Source: Escherichia coli | GTDB lineage: Bacteria > Pseudomonadota > Gammaproteobacteria > Enterobacterales > Enterobacteriaceae | Assembly (NCBI RefSeq): GCF_017348835.2 | Contig: NZ_CP071375.1 | Length of the DNA: 64,000 nucleotides | Direction: 5' to 3' (one strand) | In this document: positions 54,945-61,860 of the stretch, piece by piece | Position numbering within the stretch: the stretch's first letter is position 1 | Layout of the letters: each line of letters starts with the position of its first letter | Notes under the pieces: model-generated | The model's input: the letters and a program-made list of their open reading frames with translations, nothing else | The model's database searches: none | What the model was told of the DNA's origin: nothing | Program-made: the position numbers and the translations under genes

Positions 54945-54957
54945 AGCAGGAAGCATT

Positions 54958-54988
54958 GCCTGATGCGCTACGCTTATCAGGCCTACAA
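54958..54988. repeat. REP element
   Basis: GCCTGATGCGCTACGCTTATCAGGCCTAC between cobB and potD. Confidence 0.75.
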
Positions 54989-55099
54989 GCGGACCACAAT
55001 ACCAACGAAAGAGCGGGATAAAACTTTACTGTCCTGACTCATTAGCCACATCCTTGCTAACTAAAAAACGGGCGGTAATACCACCGCCCGCTTGCTGAA

Positions 55100-56146
55100 T
55101 TAACGTCCTGCTTTCAGCTTCTGATAATACTCTTCATAAATGCTGCTGGCTGCGCCAACGTCATTCTGCCATTCGCCATTTTTAATGGTTTCAGCATCCG
55201 GGTAGAGCGTCTTATCGTTCGCCACTTCTGGACTTAACAGCTTACGCGCCGCAAGGTTTGGCGTTGGATAACCGATAGTTTCAGCAACCTGTTTTGCCAC
55301 ATCCGGGCGCAGCAGGAAGTTGATCAATTTCAGCGCGCCTTCTTTGTTTTTGGCATTTGCCGGGATCGCCAGGCTGTCCATCCAGAATATGCCGCCTTCT
55401 TTCGGCCACACCACGTCAATAGGCGTACCCGCCTGGCGTGCAACGAAAGCAGAACCGTTCCAGATCATGCCGAGGTTAACTTCGCCTTCCATGTACGGGT
55501 TAGCCGGGTTATCGGAGTTAAACGCTGCGACGTTTGGCATCAGTTTTTTCAGCTCGTTATATGCAGCTTCAATCTCTTTCGGATCGGTGGTGTTACCGGA
55601 GTAGCCCAGCTTACGTAGCGCCATCTGGAACACTTCACGGGCATCGTCGGTCAGCAGCAGGCTGCCTTTGTACTCAGGCTTCCACAAATCGGCCCAGCTG
55701 GTGACAGATTTCGGATCCACCGCATCACCGTTAACGCCAATCGCCGTCGCACCCCAGATATACGGAATGGAGTAATCGTTATTCGGGTCAAACGGCTTAT
55801 TGAGCATGTCTGGATCGAGATTGCTGAAGTTCGTTAACTTCGACTTGTCGATCTTCTGGATCATCCCTTCTTTACGCATTTTATCGACGTAATAGGTTGA
55901 AGGAACCACCAGGTCATAGGCACCGTCTTTGTACGTTTTCAGCTTGGCATACATGGTTTCGTTCGACTCGTAAGTCGAATAGATAACCTTAATACCGGTT
56001 TCTTTGGTGAACTGTTCAAGCAGTCCTGGCGGCACGTACTCGGTCCAGTTGTAGAAATACAGCGTGTTGTTGTCATCGGCGTGAGCGGCGCTCATGCCCA
56101 GTGCCAGAGCACCCGCCGCGAGCAGGTGGCGTGACCATTTTTTCAT
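55100..56146 (-). CDS. potD: spermidine/putrescine ABC transporter periplasmic binding protein
   Basis: 348-aa ORF with signal peptide, recognised as PotD. Confidence 0.94.
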   Translation of the reverse strand: MKKWSRHLLAAGALALGMSAAHADDNNTLYFYNWTEYVPPGLLEQFTKETGIKVIYSTYESNETMYAKLKTYKDGAYDLVVPSTYYVDKMRKEGMIQKIDKSKLTNFSNLDPDMLNKPFDPNNDYSIPYIWGATAIGVNGDAVDPKSVTSWADLWKPEYKGSLLLTDDAREVFQMALRKLGYSGNTTDPKEIEAAYNELKKLMPNVAAFNSDNPANPYMEGEVNLGMIWNGSAFVARQAGTPIDVVWPKEGGIFWMDSLAIPANAKNKEGALKLINFLLRPDVAKQVAETIGYPTPNLAARKLLSPEVANDKTLYPDAETIKNGEWQNDVGAASSIYEEYYQKLKAGR

Positions 56147-56937
56147 TTAACGTCCCCTGTGTTACCTTTCGTTTTATCACGAGCAATAAGCTGGCTGGCA
56201 ATAACCATCACCAGCGACAGCACCAGTAATATGGTTGCCAGCGCGTTAACTTCCGGCGATACGCCGACTTTGACCATCGAATAAATTTTTAACGGCAGAA
56301 TTTCATAACTCGGCCCAGTGACGAACGAAGAAACAACCACATCGTCCATCGACAGGGTAAAGCTTAACACCCAGCCCGCCGCCACCGCTGGCATTGCCAG
56401 TGGCAGAATGATTTTTCGCAGAATGGTAAATTCGCTGGCACCGAGATCTTTCGCCGCTTCCAGCATTCGCACGTCAAAACCTTTCAGGCGCGAATACACC
56501 GTCACCACCACAAATGGCAGGCAGAAGGTGATATGCGAGAACAGCAGCGACCAGAAGCCAAGCTGAATACCCAGCAGCATAAACAGCACCAGCAGCGAAA
56601 TTGCCATCACGATATCTGGTGACATCATTACCACAAACAGCATTCCGCTAACGAACGGCTTACCACGAAAGCGATAACGGTACAGTGCAACTGCCGTCAG
56701 TGAACCGATAAGCGTAGCAAACGTCGCTGAAAACACCGCCATCGTCAATGAATGCTGAGCTGCCTGCAACAGACTGTCGTTGTTCATCAGCAGGCTATAC
56801 CATTTAGTGGTAAAACCCTGCCAGTTGATGCCAAAGCGCGAGCTGTTGAAAGAGTTCACAATCAAAATAATGATTGGAATATACAGGTACGCGTAGATAG
56901 CGGTCATAAAACCGCCGCGAAGCAGTCGACCGATCAT
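56143..56937 (-). CDS. potC: spermidine/putrescine ABC transporter permease
   Basis: 264-aa ORF recognised as PotC; 4-nt overlap with potD. Confidence 0.94.
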   Translation of the reverse strand: MIGRLLRGGFMTAIYAYLYIPIIILIVNSFNSSRFGINWQGFTTKWYSLLMNNDSLLQAAQHSLTMAVFSATFATLIGSLTAVALYRYRFRGKPFVSGMLFVVMMSPDIVMAISLLVLFMLLGIQLGFWSLLFSHITFCLPFVVVTVYSRLKGFDVRMLEAAKDLGASEFTILRKIILPLAMPAVAAGWVLSFTLSMDDVVVSSFVTGPSYEILPLKIYSMVKVGVSPEVNALATILLVLSLVMVIASQLIARDKTKGNTGDVK

Positions 56938-56969
56938 TCGAGTTCCACCTTTTTATTCATAAGGCGGGA
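56934..56969 (-). pseudogene. potB: 3'-terminal remnant of potB, cut off by the prophage junction
   Basis: Minus-strand frame ending in TGA that overlaps the potC ATG (ATGA) encodes ...SRLMNKKVELE; this matches my recollection of the PotB C-terminus, and the frame is open for only 37 codons (to 57047) with no membrane-permease body upstream. Confidence 0.45.
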
Positions 56970-57245
56970 CACTTTCAGGTTTTTGAATTTATTCAATTTT
57001 TTCCTTTCTCCAAAATCTCTCCAAAACTTTTCCCCAAAACAGGACCACGCATTTTACAGCATTTTTATACATGGGTGAGCTTACTAGGACAGAAAAGTAT
57101 TCCAGTTTGTTTACCCATATCGCTTTCCGAATGAGATTTTTGATGTGATTTCTTCGTGTTGAAAAACCACATAATGTGGTATTAGAATTAGCTATCAAGA
57201 TTCACTTTGAATCCGTTTTGAATCCCATTGAACTCAGGAGTGACT

Positions 57246-57449
57246 ATGAAGCGTAAAAGTGTGGCTTTGTTACAAGCCATTGGCTCGGTTATAGCCCTGA
57301 GCCCGACGGTCGTTTCAGCAAATGGCATGCCAGCGAATCCAGTTTCCGCTTTGCGTCAGGATGCTGCGGCTATCAGAGGCGATTTCCAAAAAGCAATGGT
57401 ATCCGTTAACGTTGAAAAGCTGAACAATGCCAGATCAAAAAGAAAGTGA
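57246..57449 (+). CDS. small secreted protein, unknown function (prophage cargo)
   Basis: 67 aa, MKRKSVALLQAIGSVIALSPTVVSA is a signal peptide with a likely cleavage site after VSA; AGGAG Shine-Dalgarno 5 nt upstream; the listed ORF starts at an in-frame TTG at 57228. Confidence 0.55.
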   Translation: MKRKSVALLQAIGSVIALSPTVVSANGMPANPVSALRQDAAAIRGDFQKAMVSVNVEKLNNARSKRK

Positions 57450-57534
57450 GAACACCAAACTCACTTGTGAATAACAAAAGGATAATGAACTGGTTTCTCG
57501 AGTAATCGAAAATCCAGAGGTCTTAAACAGGGTT

Positions 57535-57894
57535 TTGGATAGTCCGCAGGTGCGGGCTATTGTTTGCCAGCATTTTCAGGGGCCTGTTCCGCCACCTTCA
57601 ATGCTTAAAAAGTATGATCAACTGGTGCCTGGGCTTGCAAATCGACTTGTTGAGTTGACCGAAAAAGAGCAGGCTCATCGCCATAAAACAGTGGCTGATA
57701 GCATTGATATTGCCAGAGATGGTCAAACAAAGGCTTTTTGGTTGGCAATATTGATCATCTTAGCTGCCACTGTCTTTGGCGTCATGGGGGAGACAGTTCT
57801 TGCCGGAACTCTCGTTTCAATAGATCTTGTTGCATTGGTTACGGCATTTATTGTTGGAAAACATTATTCTAAGCAGGAACCTGATCAAGATTAG
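57535..57894 (+). CDS. DUF2335-like two-transmembrane-helix membrane protein (prophage cargo)
   Basis: N-terminal PVPPPSMLKKYDQLVPGLANRLVELTEKEQAHRH followed by two hydrophobic helices; start uncertain (TTG 57535 or ATG 57601), no strong Shine-Dalgarno. Confidence 0.5.
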   Translation: MDSPQVRAIVCQHFQGPVPPPSMLKKYDQLVPGLANRLVELTEKEQAHRHKTVADSIDIARDGQTKAFWLAILIILAATVFGVMGETVLAGTLVSIDLVALVTAFIVGKHYSKQEPDQD

Positions 57895-57902
57895 TCTCCG
57901 AA

Positions 57903-57925
57903 CCCCGGTTGATGCCGGGGTTTTT
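57903..57925 (+). terminator. rho-independent terminator after the cargo cassette
   Basis: CCCCGG-TTGATG-CCGGGG followed by TTTTT, 9 nt after the stop codon. Confidence 0.8.
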
Positions 57926-57970
57926 ACACTAGCAAAGCAATATCAACATTTTTCAGCTGCATTTATTTCG

Positions 57971-59089
57971 TCAAACAACCAATTTAACCCATTCCTGACC
58001 ACGAGTATCGTTATAACGATCGGTGGTTGCTTGGACTTTATGTCCCAGTAATGTTTTTGTATCAATACCCTGCGCGCGGTACAGTCGTTCTGACAGGGAG
58101 CGTTGTTCATGAAATGTTGGCGGAGTTTTTCCTGCTGGTGGAGTTATCCCAGCCAGATCCCGTGCTTTGGCAAAGTAGTCGCTCAGGTTGTCTTTACTCA
58201 TCGGCTTTGGTTGTTTCTGGTGCCGACTATGGATTAGATATGGACTTAATATTCTGTCTCGGCACCCATCAATAACTTCTTTTAACGTTATCCCAATGGC
58301 ATCACAGCGTAGTGTAAGCGGTAACGCCAGACGCATTCCGGTTTTTCCCTGGGTGATATGCAAGTGTTCGTTCCACACATCTGAAAAACGCATGTGGCAA
58401 ATGTCATCACGGCGCTGACCAGTAACAATCGCAAGAAGCATTGCGTTACGGATAAAGTGTTTTTCAGGCGTTGCGTTGTAAATTTTTTGCCAGTCTTCCA
58501 GGGTGAGCCTGGCTCTAGTTACTTTAGGGATCGGTTTACGGGTAGCCTCCGGAGGATTCCATCCAGGAGGAACTTCCCCTGCATGCTGTGCTTCTTTATA
58601 AATATCAACCCATAATCCACGATTTACTCTCGCTGTGCTGACCATGTCTTTATCCAGCCACTCATCCAGTATTAATGCAAAGTCTCTTACTTCCAGTTCT
58701 TTCAATGGGTGGTTTCCCAGACGGGAAACCAGGTATGCAGCCATTCGGGCTTTTTCTTTGTGAGTTGTAGCTGCAATATCTCCATTTTTCAGTCGCGTGT
58801 CCTGTATTTTCAGATATCGATCAACCCATGCCTTTAATCTGATACCCCGACGCTTTGTTGCTGACGGACTTTCATCAATTTTGCGCATGAAATATTCAGC
58901 CTCTGCTGCAGCTATTCGCTGATTGGCTGTGGAAGCGATTTTTTCTGCCTTACCTTTGTCTGTTCCGAGCCCGTGAAATTTTCCAGTCACAGGGTTTTTA
59001 TACTGGTAGTAAACTCTGCCAGTTCTGCGATCAAATTTTTCGTAAAGTCCGGCTACGTCAGTGCTGTTTTTTCGTGGCCTCGGTGACAT
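57971..59089 (-). CDS. int: phage integrase (tyrosine recombinase, lambda Int family)
   Basis: 372 aa; lambda-Int-like C-terminal catalytic region (VTGQRRDDICHMRFSDV, PPTFHEQRSLSERLY, LLGHK, conserved Tyr in TDRYNDTRGQEW). Confidence 0.9.
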   Translation of the reverse strand: MSPRPRKNSTDVAGLYEKFDRRTGRVYYQYKNPVTGKFHGLGTDKGKAEKIASTANQRIAAAEAEYFMRKIDESPSATKRRGIRLKAWVDRYLKIQDTRLKNGDIAATTHKEKARMAAYLVSRLGNHPLKELEVRDFALILDEWLDKDMVSTARVNRGLWVDIYKEAQHAGEVPPGWNPPEATRKPIPKVTRARLTLEDWQKIYNATPEKHFIRNAMLLAIVTGQRRDDICHMRFSDVWNEHLHITQGKTGMRLALPLTLRCDAIGITLKEVIDGCRDRILSPYLIHSRHQKQPKPMSKDNLSDYFAKARDLAGITPPAGKTPPTFHEQRSLSERLYRAQGIDTKTLLGHKVQATTDRYNDTRGQEWVKLVV

Positions 59090-59336
59090 GAGTTAAAATC
59101 TCCTTCAGTGCATCATCATCGCCAGTATGAATTTCCGGCGCAATTCCTGTTTCACCAGGTCCAACAAATACTGCTCGGCGATCTATCAGCCAACGCCCAC
59201 GAATTTTTTGTGGTCTTGGAACGATGTATCCTAGTTTTCCGTATTTCACCAGGGTAGTGTTTGTTATTGGGAGACTGAACCGTTTTGGCTTCCACTCATC
59301 GAGCGTTATCAGGTACTGTTCGCTCATGGCTATCAC
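59058..59336 (-). CDS. xis: excisionase (Xis)
   Basis: 92 aa; YLITLDEW...GRWLIDRRAV resembles lambda Xis (MYLTLQEW...); 32-nt overlap with the int start as in lambda; start could be Met1 or Met4. Confidence 0.75.
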   Translation of the reverse strand: MIAMSEQYLITLDEWKPKRFSLPITNTTLVKYGKLGYIVPRPQKIRGRWLIDRRAVFVGPGETGIAPEIHTGDDDALKEILTHVTEATKKQH

Positions 59337-59388
59337 TCCGGAACGCGCCAGTTGCAGAATACCAACGACAACTGGCGACGGTTGAACA

Positions 59389-61860
59389 TTAAAAATCAGC
59401 CTGACTCGGGATCAGTTTTTGCCAGATAACTGAAACGTATTTTGCCTGATAACGGGCGTCATCAAGTGCATTATGGCGCTCACCTTCGAATGGAATAGCC
59501 GTTCTGGCATCGAAGTCTATGGCTTTCCCCAGCTCAACGATTGTGCGTACATCGCGATCGTTGTAGTAACGCCACGGGCAGGGGATCCCCTGCCGTTCGT
59601 ATGAACGGCGCAAAATCGTGTTATCGAAGTTGGCTCCATTTCCCCAGACCTGAACAAAAAATTCACCGGAGTTTTCGTCGATAAATTCCCGCAATTGTAA
59701 CAGTGCATCATCTAACGGGATTTCATCGGTCATAATGGCAGATTGCGCTTCGCGTGATTGCTTAAGCCACCATTTAATGGTGTCCCGATCAATGACTCCG
59801 CCAGCAGTTTCCAGATCGATAGTCTTACTAAATTCCGGTCCCATATCTCCGGTTTGCGGATCGAAAAATATTGCACCTATTGAGATGATCGGGGCATCAG
59901 GATTTTTTCCCATGGTTTCAAGGTCGATCATTAGATGGTCACACGTCCTGCTGGTGGATGTGATTTCTTGATGACCGTTCACCTTAATTGAGTGATCTGC
60001 CGTCTCGCCAGTTTCACTATCGCTGGCATGATGCTGATTGCCGCCAGTGTTCTCCTTGTGTGGATGTTCAGCGCCTTCCATTTTCTCCGGATCATCTTCC
60101 TGAACTTCAACCTGATACTCTTCATCGAATGTTTCCTGGTATGTTGCGTCGCCCATCACCGCGCCACAATCAGGGCAGTTGCCGCCGCCGGTCTGACCGC
60201 AGGCGGTGCAGGCTTTTTCCACTTCCTGTTGCGCCACTGGTTCAGGCTGTTTCGTTTCTGGCTCGTTTTGTAACGCATTTGGGCTGTTTTGTTCCGCTTT
60301 TTGGTAGTTCCGTTCCGATTCATGCTGGTTCTGGTTTACAGAATCGCGGGTCTGGATCCCCTTAACCCATTTCGGATCATTCGGGTCGCTAATCCCTGCA
60401 ACAAATTCTCCGCGAGAGGCAGCAAGCAACTTATCGGCGTCAGGCTGGCTGATATTGGCTGCCTGCATAATTTTGTTTACTTCGTCAGCGGTAACTTTTA
60501 CCGGCTCTGGTTGTGCGGTCGTGTCAGATGCACCAGTATTTTGTTGTGAACCTGAGTATGTACTGTTTTTGCGGGCGAAATATTCTTCTTTCGTGATTTC
60601 AGTAGCCCCGGCAGCCAGTGCCTTATCCAGACCAGAAAGTTTGTTTGCGCGACCGTATTTTTCGCCATCCTTGTCGGTGAAGAGGAAGTAGAACGGCCCC
60701 TCACGCTCTACAGATGGTTCGACTTCCACTTTGCATTCGGTTTTTTCGTTGTCCGGAATTGCCGTTTCCACTGCATCAGTTTCTGGTACTGGCGACGAGA
60801 GAGTATCAGTTGCGCTCTGATTTGTTCCTTCATCTTCAAACACGCCCTTTGTAGTCAGGTATTCAGTAATGTATTTGTTCAGTGCCACAGGGTCTTTGTG
60901 AATGTCGATCGGACGTTCACGGACAAGGCCAAAAATAGTCTGGCGGTCGTAGCGAAGGGCATCAGGCTGTTTGCGCATTGATGCCGAGATACGCTTCCAG
61001 TCTTCGCGGTCGTTGTCGATAACTTCATTTTTTGCCCAGCGATGGATGCTGCCGTCAATGTTTCCGGCATCCACATCACCAGGCCAGAGAGCGTAGGCCA
61101 GTTCGTCATCCAGTGTTTTCCATGTCTGCTTGTATTCGCGATGAATGGCAGCAATGACCGGGCTGATTTTTCCTGTTGAATTTTCAGTGTGCTGTTGATT
61201 GGTTCTGGCGCGGGCGAGATCAACAACAGACGTGTATTTTCCGGTTTCCTTGCGTTCACCTTCGCGACGTTTTTTCCAGATGCGCATCTCTGCCTGAATT
61301 TCGGGCCATTTGGCACCAGGCTTACATTTATGCTTAACCCACCCGATGGCATGCAGCTTAAGCTCCGGATACATGGCGTTAACTTCTGGCATTTTCATCA
61401 ACGCTTCAACGATATGTCCGTCGAATGTTGCCATGTCTTCCTGCAACAATTCCTGTGCGCTAATAACCATATCAACGGTGATGTTTTCACATGTGTCGAA
61501 CTTAACCATGACAGCGTTCTGTACTTCAGGGGCCAGCTTGTCAAAAGTGACGTTCATCGGATCTGATTCAGTCTCAACCGGAACAAAGGAAGCAGACTCC
61601 TCATCCCAGCGGTTTTCCTGCATATATTCAGCATCCCATGAATCGAGGGCAGGGCGGGGTATGCCAGGTTTATCCTCGCAGATAATAAATTTATAAGCGC
61701 AGTCCTGAGCAGCCGGATAATGTTCCAGGAATTGCCAGTGAAATTTTGCTCGAGCACGGCGTTCGTCGCCAGCTTCAATAGCTGTGGCTACAGCCACAGC
61801 GCCTTCTTCCCTTGTTGCCAGTTCGTCAGGAATGGCGGCGCAAATAAAGACTTTACTCAT
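59389..61860 (-). CDS. phage exonuclease of the family often annotated exodeoxyribonuclease VIII, with C-terminal DnaQ-like DEDDh 3'-5' exonuclease domain
   Basis: 823 aa; C-terminus carries Exo I (MIDLETMG), Exo II (VWGNGANFDNTIL) and Exo III (HNALDDARYQAKY) motifs; central acidic/Gln-Pro-rich segment with Zn-ribbon-like CTACGQTGGGNCPDCG; sits in the exo/recE slot of a lambdoid early-left operon. Confidence 0.75.
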   Translation of the reverse strand: MSKVFICAAIPDELATREEGAVAVATAIEAGDERRARAKFHWQFLEHYPAAQDCAYKFIICEDKPGIPRPALDSWDAEYMQENRWDEESASFVPVETESDPMNVTFDKLAPEVQNAVMVKFDTCENITVDMVISAQELLQEDMATFDGHIVEALMKMPEVNAMYPELKLHAIGWVKHKCKPGAKWPEIQAEMRIWKKRREGERKETGKYTSVVDLARARTNQQHTENSTGKISPVIAAIHREYKQTWKTLDDELAYALWPGDVDAGNIDGSIHRWAKNEVIDNDREDWKRISASMRKQPDALRYDRQTIFGLVRERPIDIHKDPVALNKYITEYLTTKGVFEDEGTNQSATDTLSSPVPETDAVETAIPDNEKTECKVEVEPSVEREGPFYFLFTDKDGEKYGRANKLSGLDKALAAGATEITKEEYFARKNSTYSGSQQNTGASDTTAQPEPVKVTADEVNKIMQAANISQPDADKLLAASRGEFVAGISDPNDPKWVKGIQTRDSVNQNQHESERNYQKAEQNSPNALQNEPETKQPEPVAQQEVEKACTACGQTGGGNCPDCGAVMGDATYQETFDEEYQVEVQEDDPEKMEGAEHPHKENTGGNQHHASDSETGETADHSIKVNGHQEITSTSRTCDHLMIDLETMGKNPDAPIISIGAIFFDPQTGDMGPEFSKTIDLETAGGVIDRDTIKWWLKQSREAQSAIMTDEIPLDDALLQLREFIDENSGEFFVQVWGNGANFDNTILRRSYERQGIPCPWRYYNDRDVRTIVELGKAIDFDARTAIPFEGERHNALDDARYQAKYVSVIWQKLIPSQADF

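Follow-up and report, generated by a model that had tools for sequence, protein, structure and literature searches.

Organization of the potB-potC junction

The stretch of DNA analyzed here (64,000 nucleotides of Escherichia coli contig NZ_CP071375.1, hereafter the window) carries potC and potD, two genes of the potABCD operon for spermidine and putrescine uptake, next to one end of a prophage that splits the operon between potB and potC. The far prophage end, potB, and potA all lie beyond the end of the window and were read from the record of E. coli PE164 (NZ_CP114128.1), which matches the window at 100%. In this record, potB and potA are located on the minus strand approximately 53 kb from potC-potD, on the other side of the prophage. 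An earlier note, written from the letters of the window, had stated that potC-potD were cut off from the potA promoter, and the PE164 record bears this out. The same note had placed potA and the "body" of potB beyond the prophage; the location was right, although inferred (neither gene is in the window), whereas potB proved to be a complete open reading frame (ORF) and not a mere body. The junction contains the following features.

55100-56146, minus strand: potD, spermidine/putrescine-binding periplasmic protein, intact (ORF list and RefSeq annotation)
56143-56937, minus strand: potC, intact gene for an ABC transporter permease, which has kept its Shine-Dalgarno sequence AAGGTGGA (approximately 56944-56951)
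56934-56947, minus strand: native potB 3' end, displaced from the rest of the gene (codons VELE and the stop overlapping the potC ATG), from the K-12 potB-potC junction alignment and translations
56948-56959, no strand: attL core CCTTTTTATTCA; the second copy, CCTTCTTATTCA, stands beside potB (L002 8550-8561, far end), and the sequence of this second copy is found once in K-12
56960-57065, no strand: conserved phage arm of attL (P'-like), common to all prophages examined at this site and containing the palindrome TTGAAT-TT-ATTCAA
57005-57039, plus strand: direct repeat TYTCYCCAAAA, three times in tandem (spaced by 11 and 13 nt), candidate arm-type integrase sites
57971-59089, minus strand (as potC): lambda-type tyrosine integrase, Pfam PF09003 (Arm-DNA-binding, 3.7e-21) and PF00589 (catalytic, 4.1e-19)
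59058-59327, minus strand: excisionase (RefSeq annotation; Pfam PF07825 at 7.1e-5)

A three-way alignment identified the 12-bp core within the last potB codons, present once in K-12 and at both prophage ends in PE164, and the insertion point lies 11-22 nt upstream of the potC ATG. The prophage between potB and potC is a defective lambdoid element with 53.1 kb between its two core copies. In the minus-strand direction, the genes upstream of potC are two small plus-strand ORFs followed by those for the integrase, the excisionase, and a RecE-like exonuclease, all annotated as prophage. Alignment of the K-12 junction with both prophage ends revealed only prophage DNA upstream of potC beyond position 56959. 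The earlier statement that potC is preceded by phage DNA alone holds for all of this region, but not for the approximately 11 bases next to the potC ATG. These bases (56938-56947 and the core) are native or core sequence, and the potC side has kept four native potB codons, the potB stop over the potC ATG, and the potC Shine-Dalgarno sequence.

Beyond the prophage, potB is still a full ORF in which the last four codons, VELE, are swapped for the six phage codons ATEIDD. The C-terminal sequence of PotB therefore changes from RLLNKKVELE in K-12 to RLLNKKATEIDD in PE164, ending in NKKATEIDD before the stop. Compared with K-12, potD and potC differ by 20 and 19 nucleotides, respectively, and neither shows an amino-acid difference; in six other lysogens, both genes are likewise intact without decay.

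The junction also contains an eight-codon mini-ORF on the minus strand (56960-56934; ATG AAT AAA AAG GTG GAA CTC GAA TGA, encoding MNKKVELE), whose ATG is formed by a phage A and the TG of the core; this ATG was found in all seven junctions examined. Like the native potB stop, the stop of the mini-ORF overlaps the potC ATG (ATGA), and no obvious Shine-Dalgarno sequence precedes the mini-ORF. This mini-ORF might keep the translational coupling of potC. At the far end, an inverted repeat GGCATGC...GCATGCC (L002 8464-8497) follows the new stop codon of potB, 33-66 nt further on as potAB is transcribed. With the phage in circular form, the repeat would sit downstream of int across attP. It may correspond to tI/sib and, in its present position, terminate or destabilize the potAB mRNA.

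Attachment site and integrase

A single base distinguishes the two core copies, T at window position 56952 (potC side) and C at L002 8554 (potB side). Among other lysogens, the potC-side base is T in strains 9000, O22:H8, O111:H8, and A8 and C in LAU-OXA and ETEC1717, and the variable base may mark the place of strand exchange inside the core. Five other lysogens have the same core, and the attL arm also aligned with the junctions of O157 strain 9000, O22:H8, and O111:H8.

The integrase gene shows 97.7% nucleotide identity to int of the CFT073 prophage phi-potB. The motif TCYCCAAAA has just the three matches of the tandem repeats within the 64-kb window, and its sole match in 15 kb at the far end lies approximately 120 bp from the other core copy. 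The TYTCYCCAAAA repeats are plausible candidates for arm-type integrase sites because the integrase has a lambda Arm-binding domain. In the conserved arm, 24 bp from the core, the perfect palindrome TTGAAT-TT-ATTCAA with 6-bp arms (56983-56996) may be a host-factor or Int site. A search for a free-phage attP in a phage collection returned only vB_EcoS-640R1 and 813R8, which are prophage-derived records still containing potC and potD, and no independent attP was found there.

Distribution of the insertion among E. coli genomes

A 401-bp probe of the K-12 junction was searched against 5,426 complete E. coli genomes. The potB-potC junction was unbroken in 3,800 genomes, and the remaining approximately 1,625 (approximately 30%, a share that describes this pathogen-skewed database and not the species) were split at the same 12 bases. 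In the split genomes, the BLAST matches of the probe stop at 224 or start at 213, which are the ends of the core with its 12-base overlap.

Two forms of the junction were recognized. In the common form (n = 1,405), represented by LAU-OXA, O157 strain 9000, O22:H8, O111:H8, and CFT073, the same integrase gene lies upstream of potC, runs on the potC strand, and ends 166 bp before it. The form found in the window, with a cargo cassette between int and the attL arm, occurs in 210 of the 5,426 genomes, including O103:H2 12009, enterotoxigenic E. coli (ETEC) E24377A, and O121 strains.

The site has already been named phi-CFT073-potB. A prophage PP_potB has been described in O157 clade 8, in a study of O157 that notes its frequent gain and loss, while "potC" has been used for a prophage of UK O157 strains and also as the name of a Shiga toxin (Stx) phage insertion site. 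The structure is thus a known, catalogued integration site with a known integrase type.

Palindromes and promoter-like sites upstream of potC

The earlier note had pointed to an AT-rich segment and a palindrome at 57167-57179 upstream of potC, and both are present. The GC content of 56900-57300 is 0.36-0.41, compared with 0.45-0.56 in potCD. The palindrome, most of the AT-rich segment, and both promoter-like sites listed here fall inside the cargo cassette (57066-57964). The palindrome and the nearby promoter-like sites are located as follows.

57163-57183, no strand: palindrome with 10-nt arms (57163-57172 and 57174-57183), 90% complementary; perfect core CCACAT-A-ATGTGG at 57167-57179
57159-57188, plus strand: strong sigma-70-like promoter TTGAAA-18-TAGAAT, 10 of 12 consensus positions, pointing to the ORF at 57246 and away from potC
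57171-57198, minus strand: TTGATA-16-CATTAT, 9 of 12 consensus positions, the only consensus promoter-like site upstream of potC that faces potC

The palindrome is modestly unusual, with one inverted repeat with 10-bp arms observed against 0.06-0.14 expected for a region of this size, and ETEC1717 carries a substitution in one of its arms. In a 313-bp region here, four perfect palindromes with 6-bp arms were observed against 0.45 expected. One of them, GATTCA-CTT-TGAATC (57199-57213), coincides with the point where transcription of the cassette is predicted to begin.

The palindrome fills the 18-bp spacer of the plus-strand site TTGAAA-18-TAGAAT, which is the best consensus match in 56000-59400. 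We scored the sites with a position weight matrix (PWM), taking the best site per 320-bp tile of the window as background (median 7.25, 90th percentile 9.6, 95th percentile 10.1). The plus-strand site scored 13.6, against the 95th percentile of 10.1, and is followed after approximately 50 nt by AGGAG and the ATG at 57246. It is invariant across the three cassette variants compared (window, ETEC1717, and A8). The potC-facing site scored 9.0, above the tile median and below the 90th percentile, and its -35 element is turned into ATGTTA or CTGTTA in ETEC1717 and A8. Three weak minus-strand sites (57198->57171, 57079->57051, and 57014->56986) scored 8.3-9.0. Promoter-like sites are not enriched in 56000-59400, with five observed against 4.6 +/- 2.1 in shuffled sequences.

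No consensus promoter-like site was found in the common-form int-potC spacer, int, or xis, and no minus-strand terminator-like site was detected between int and potC in either form. These results suggest that the palindrome probably belongs to the promoter of the cassette or to its operator, and no dedicated outward promoter towards potC is apparent in the sequence. Two further candidates were rejected. The 69-amino-acid minus-strand ORF at 56989-57198 is unannotated, covers both the att arm and the promoter region, and lacks support as a gene. In CFT073, a site inside int (TTGCCA-19-GATAAT with TG, score 10.3) was considered as a general potC promoter; the window has GATAAC, which differs at the critical last position.

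The cargo cassette between int and the attL arm

The DNA between the attL arm and int in the window comprises a small cassette with the following features.

57066-57964, plus strand: cargo (moron-like) cassette of 0.9 kb between the attL arm and int, with break points by BLAST against the common form
57246-57449, plus strand: 67-amino-acid ORF with a signal-peptide-like N-terminus and a good Shine-Dalgarno sequence (AGGAG), a RefSeq coding sequence
57535-57894, plus strand: DUF2335 membrane protein (Pfam PF10097, E = 7.8e-13; PHROG 3996, category moron, E = 2.9e-39)
57901-57925, plus strand: GC-rich hairpin AACCCCGG-TTGATG-CCGGGGTT followed by a T run, 7 nt past the DUF2335 stop, read from the sequence

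The break points come from BLAST: window 56899-57065 is approximately 96% identical to the common form (LAU-OXA), from inside potC through most of the int-potC spacer, and homology restarts at 57965, just before the int stop. The cassette stands in place of approximately 33 bp of the common form and is absent from 1,405 of the approximately 1,615 prophages at this site. The 67-amino-acid ORF had no family match in Pfam, PHROG, or NCBIfam.

The hairpin at 57901-57925 reads as an intrinsic terminator of the cassette on the plus strand. It was not listed by the consensus scan, and on the minus strand the fold is followed by UUCGGAGAC, a poor U tract. The cassette has its own predicted promoter and terminator-like hairpin, a variable presence at a fixed slot, and a match in the PHROG category moron, all of which mark it as a moron-like insert of an ordinary kind.

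Cargo varies at the slot between int and the attL arm, which is empty in 1,405 genomes and contains the small ORF and DUF2335 gene in approximately 209. In one genome, strain A8, it contains the small ORF and a gene with an ORF6N domain oriented towards potC. The ETEC1717 cassette is 94% identical to that of the window, and its DUF2335 ORF has 155 amino acids and overlaps the small ORF, compared with 119 amino acids and a TTG start in the window.

Possible sources of potCD transcription

Any potC transcript must start in or cross prophage-derived DNA because the insertion lies 11-22 nt upstream of the potC ATG; this conclusion is sound, and on this point the earlier note, which had expected potCD expression to come from or through prophage-end DNA, agrees with our analysis. 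In the common form, read-through from int and the early-left operon would be the simplest source of such a transcript because int, xis, and exo run in the same direction as potC and the DNA from int to potC has no terminator-like site on the minus strand. In the cassette form, read-through from int is possible, but would oppose the strong predicted promoter of the cassette.

The only indication of expression found is indirect and comes from published RNA-seq data of CFT073 aligned to NC_004431.1 (PMC8716947), where a kguR mutant is reported to have approximately 2.5-fold less potD mRNA. This points to measurable potD mRNA in one common-form lysogen. Three other sources were considered and set aside. 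The internal potABCD promoter of Shimada et al. is situated at the potA/potB boundary, which is on the far side of the prophage in a lysogen, and cannot serve potC. A microarray of a lambda lysogen, in which potCB was slightly down, is irrelevant since lambda integrates elsewhere. A transcriptome table of O26 and O145 strains with fold changes for potC and potD was based on draft genomes with unconfirmed prophage carriage and was not used as evidence.

Taken together, our reading of the region has a part that the sequence shows and a part that is inferred, and as a whole we give it a probability of roughly 70%. The sequence shows an attL junction, on the int side, of a PP_potB / phi-CFT073-potB prophage. 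A lambda-type tyrosine integrase put the phage into the 12-bp core in the last potB codons. potB received a substitute tail on the far side, while the native potB codons, the Shine-Dalgarno sequence, and potC-potD stayed on the near side. Going upstream from potC, the order is a phage arm of approximately 105 bp with its three candidate arm-type repeats, a cassette predicted to be transcribed away from potC, and int-xis-exo on the same strand as potC. We propose that potCD mRNA most likely arises from low-level, non-dedicated minus-strand transcription and that the palindrome holds no dedicated outward promoter. The potCD mRNA may come from weak AT-rich phage sites, from int/early-left read-through meeting no convincing intrinsic terminator, or from both. 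Because this mRNA would derive from non-dedicated minus-strand transcription in phage DNA, potCD would be uncoupled from the potA promoter, probably at a level different from and likely lower than that of potAB, and this level may rise once the early-left operon of the prophage is derepressed.

Several points weigh against this proposal. The consensus and PWM scans modelled sigma-70 only and miss many real promoters. The expression hint covers potD only, in the common-form strain CFT073, and a promoter inside potC could drive potD instead. In the cassette form, convergent cassette transcription and the hairpin at 57901-57925 could block read-through from int; in that case, potC would depend on the three weak minus-strand sites listed above. 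Finally, the conservation of PotC and PotD mostly reflects their history before the prophage arrived and is no proof of present expression.

Alternative explanations

The alternative that survives best, although we consider it unlikely, is a polar insertion in which potC and perhaps potD are essentially silent and PotABCD is non-functional in lysogens. E. coli would tolerate the loss through its own polyamine synthesis and the other importers PotFGHI, PuuP, and PlaP. The common-form spacer without a consensus promoter and the background-level sites in the window are consistent with this explanation, as is lambdoid biology, in which a lysogen normally keeps int and the early-left operon repressed. 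The occupancy of the site (approximately 30%) and the frequent gain and loss of PP_potB in the O157 study also fit a low fitness cost either way. However, potD is reported to be significantly differentially expressed in the CFT073 RNA-seq study, so its mRNA is measurable there, and none of the seven lysogens examined has a decayed potC or potD. In addition, the potC Shine-Dalgarno sequence is kept and no terminator isolates potC from upstream transcription, which argues against complete silencing.

Least probable, and in our view very unlikely, is the proposal of the earlier note that the palindrome and the AT-rich segment supply an outward promoter (TTGATA-16-CATTAT, approximately 57160-57200, with a start near 57164) that drives potC-potD and places polyamine uptake under prophage-end control: this site is on the right strand, overlaps the palindrome, has the top minus-strand score in 56938-58000, and stands in an AT-rich region with an excess of small palindromes, but its score is at background level in a region without enrichment of such sites, neither ETEC1717 nor A8 retains its -35 element whereas the opposing site is invariant, the same bases are better read as the spacer and -10 region of the cassette promoter, and an element absent from most prophages at this site cannot be a general answer to polar insertion.

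Comparison with known systems

The attL junction and its prophage can be compared with several known systems. The window prophage shares with PP_potB / phi-CFT073-potB the attB core, the integrase family, and the order and orientation of int-xis-exo beside potC. It differs in its 0.9-kb cassette, its decay by IS3 elements and pseudogenes, and the type III secretion system (T3SS) effector genes at the far end.

In the attL of lambda (B-O-P'), the int transcript leaves the prophage, tI/sib being across attP. The potB-site junction resembles it in the Arm-binding integrase, the three tandem arm-type-like repeats on the int side, int pointing to the host, and, in the common form, the lack of a terminator before the junction. 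In contrast, the arm sites of the window and any tI/sib analogue are predictions, and the host DNA reached is the distal half of an operon and not an unrelated gene.

Prophages are known to alter host genes, as in the loss of curli through Stx phage in mlrA/yehV or the comK phage switch of Listeria. The potB site is similar in that a prophage at a fixed site would change the expression of a host function and excision would restore the wild-type arrangement. It differs in that no host ORF is destroyed, with potB repaired and both potC and potD left intact; any effect would be transcriptional uncoupling within an operon. We found no evidence for regulated excision of the potB-site prophage.

Moron cassettes between int and attP are represented by the gtr genes of P22 and Shigella phages. 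The slot described here likewise has variable cargo next to int; it is empty in most prophages at this site, and the cassette in the window has its own predicted promoter and terminator. A difference is that the small protein of the cassette matches no family.

Other features of the region

The prophage shows decay, with an IS3 copy from approximately 63033, a second IS3 inside the tape-measure gene, and several frameshifted or partial genes or pseudogenes. Its cargo includes dicB, ydfD, and a racR-type repressor gene, as well as genes for T3SS effectors (NleG family and EspW) beside potB at the far end. On the other side of potCD, K-12, CFT073, and several other strains have ycfZ and ymfA in the cobB-potD interval; both genes are absent from the window (54945-55099) and from O157 strain 9000, in both of which the cobB-potD gap is only approximately 155 bp. 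An Rfam scan of 55000-60000 gave nothing meaningful, with a single match at E = 0.86, far under the gathering score.

Implications for polyamine uptake

A more far-reaching idea is that PP_potB, in approximately 30% of sequenced E. coli, puts potCD under int/early-left read-through, that spermidine uptake depends on the state of the prophage, and that the mini-ORF keeps potC coupled. We regard this combination as rather unlikely, and equally doubtful is a prophage-state-dependent control of potCD that matters physiologically. If true, SOS derepression or excision might raise the capacity for spermidine uptake.

Polyamines influence stress resistance, biofilm formation, and the expression of virulence genes. 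If the insertion alters how potCD are expressed, prophage occupancy of a single site would make uptake of spermidine and putrescine differ in a large share of E. coli lineages, including many Shiga toxin-producing E. coli, O26, O103, O121, and extraintestinal pathogenic E. coli of the ST73 type, with a phenotype that would revert on excision. This would be a prophage that rewires a core operon without destroying any gene. On the present evidence, the site is an ordinary, catalogued one, and the idea of some interest is that PP_potB may uncouple potCD from potAB in many lineages.

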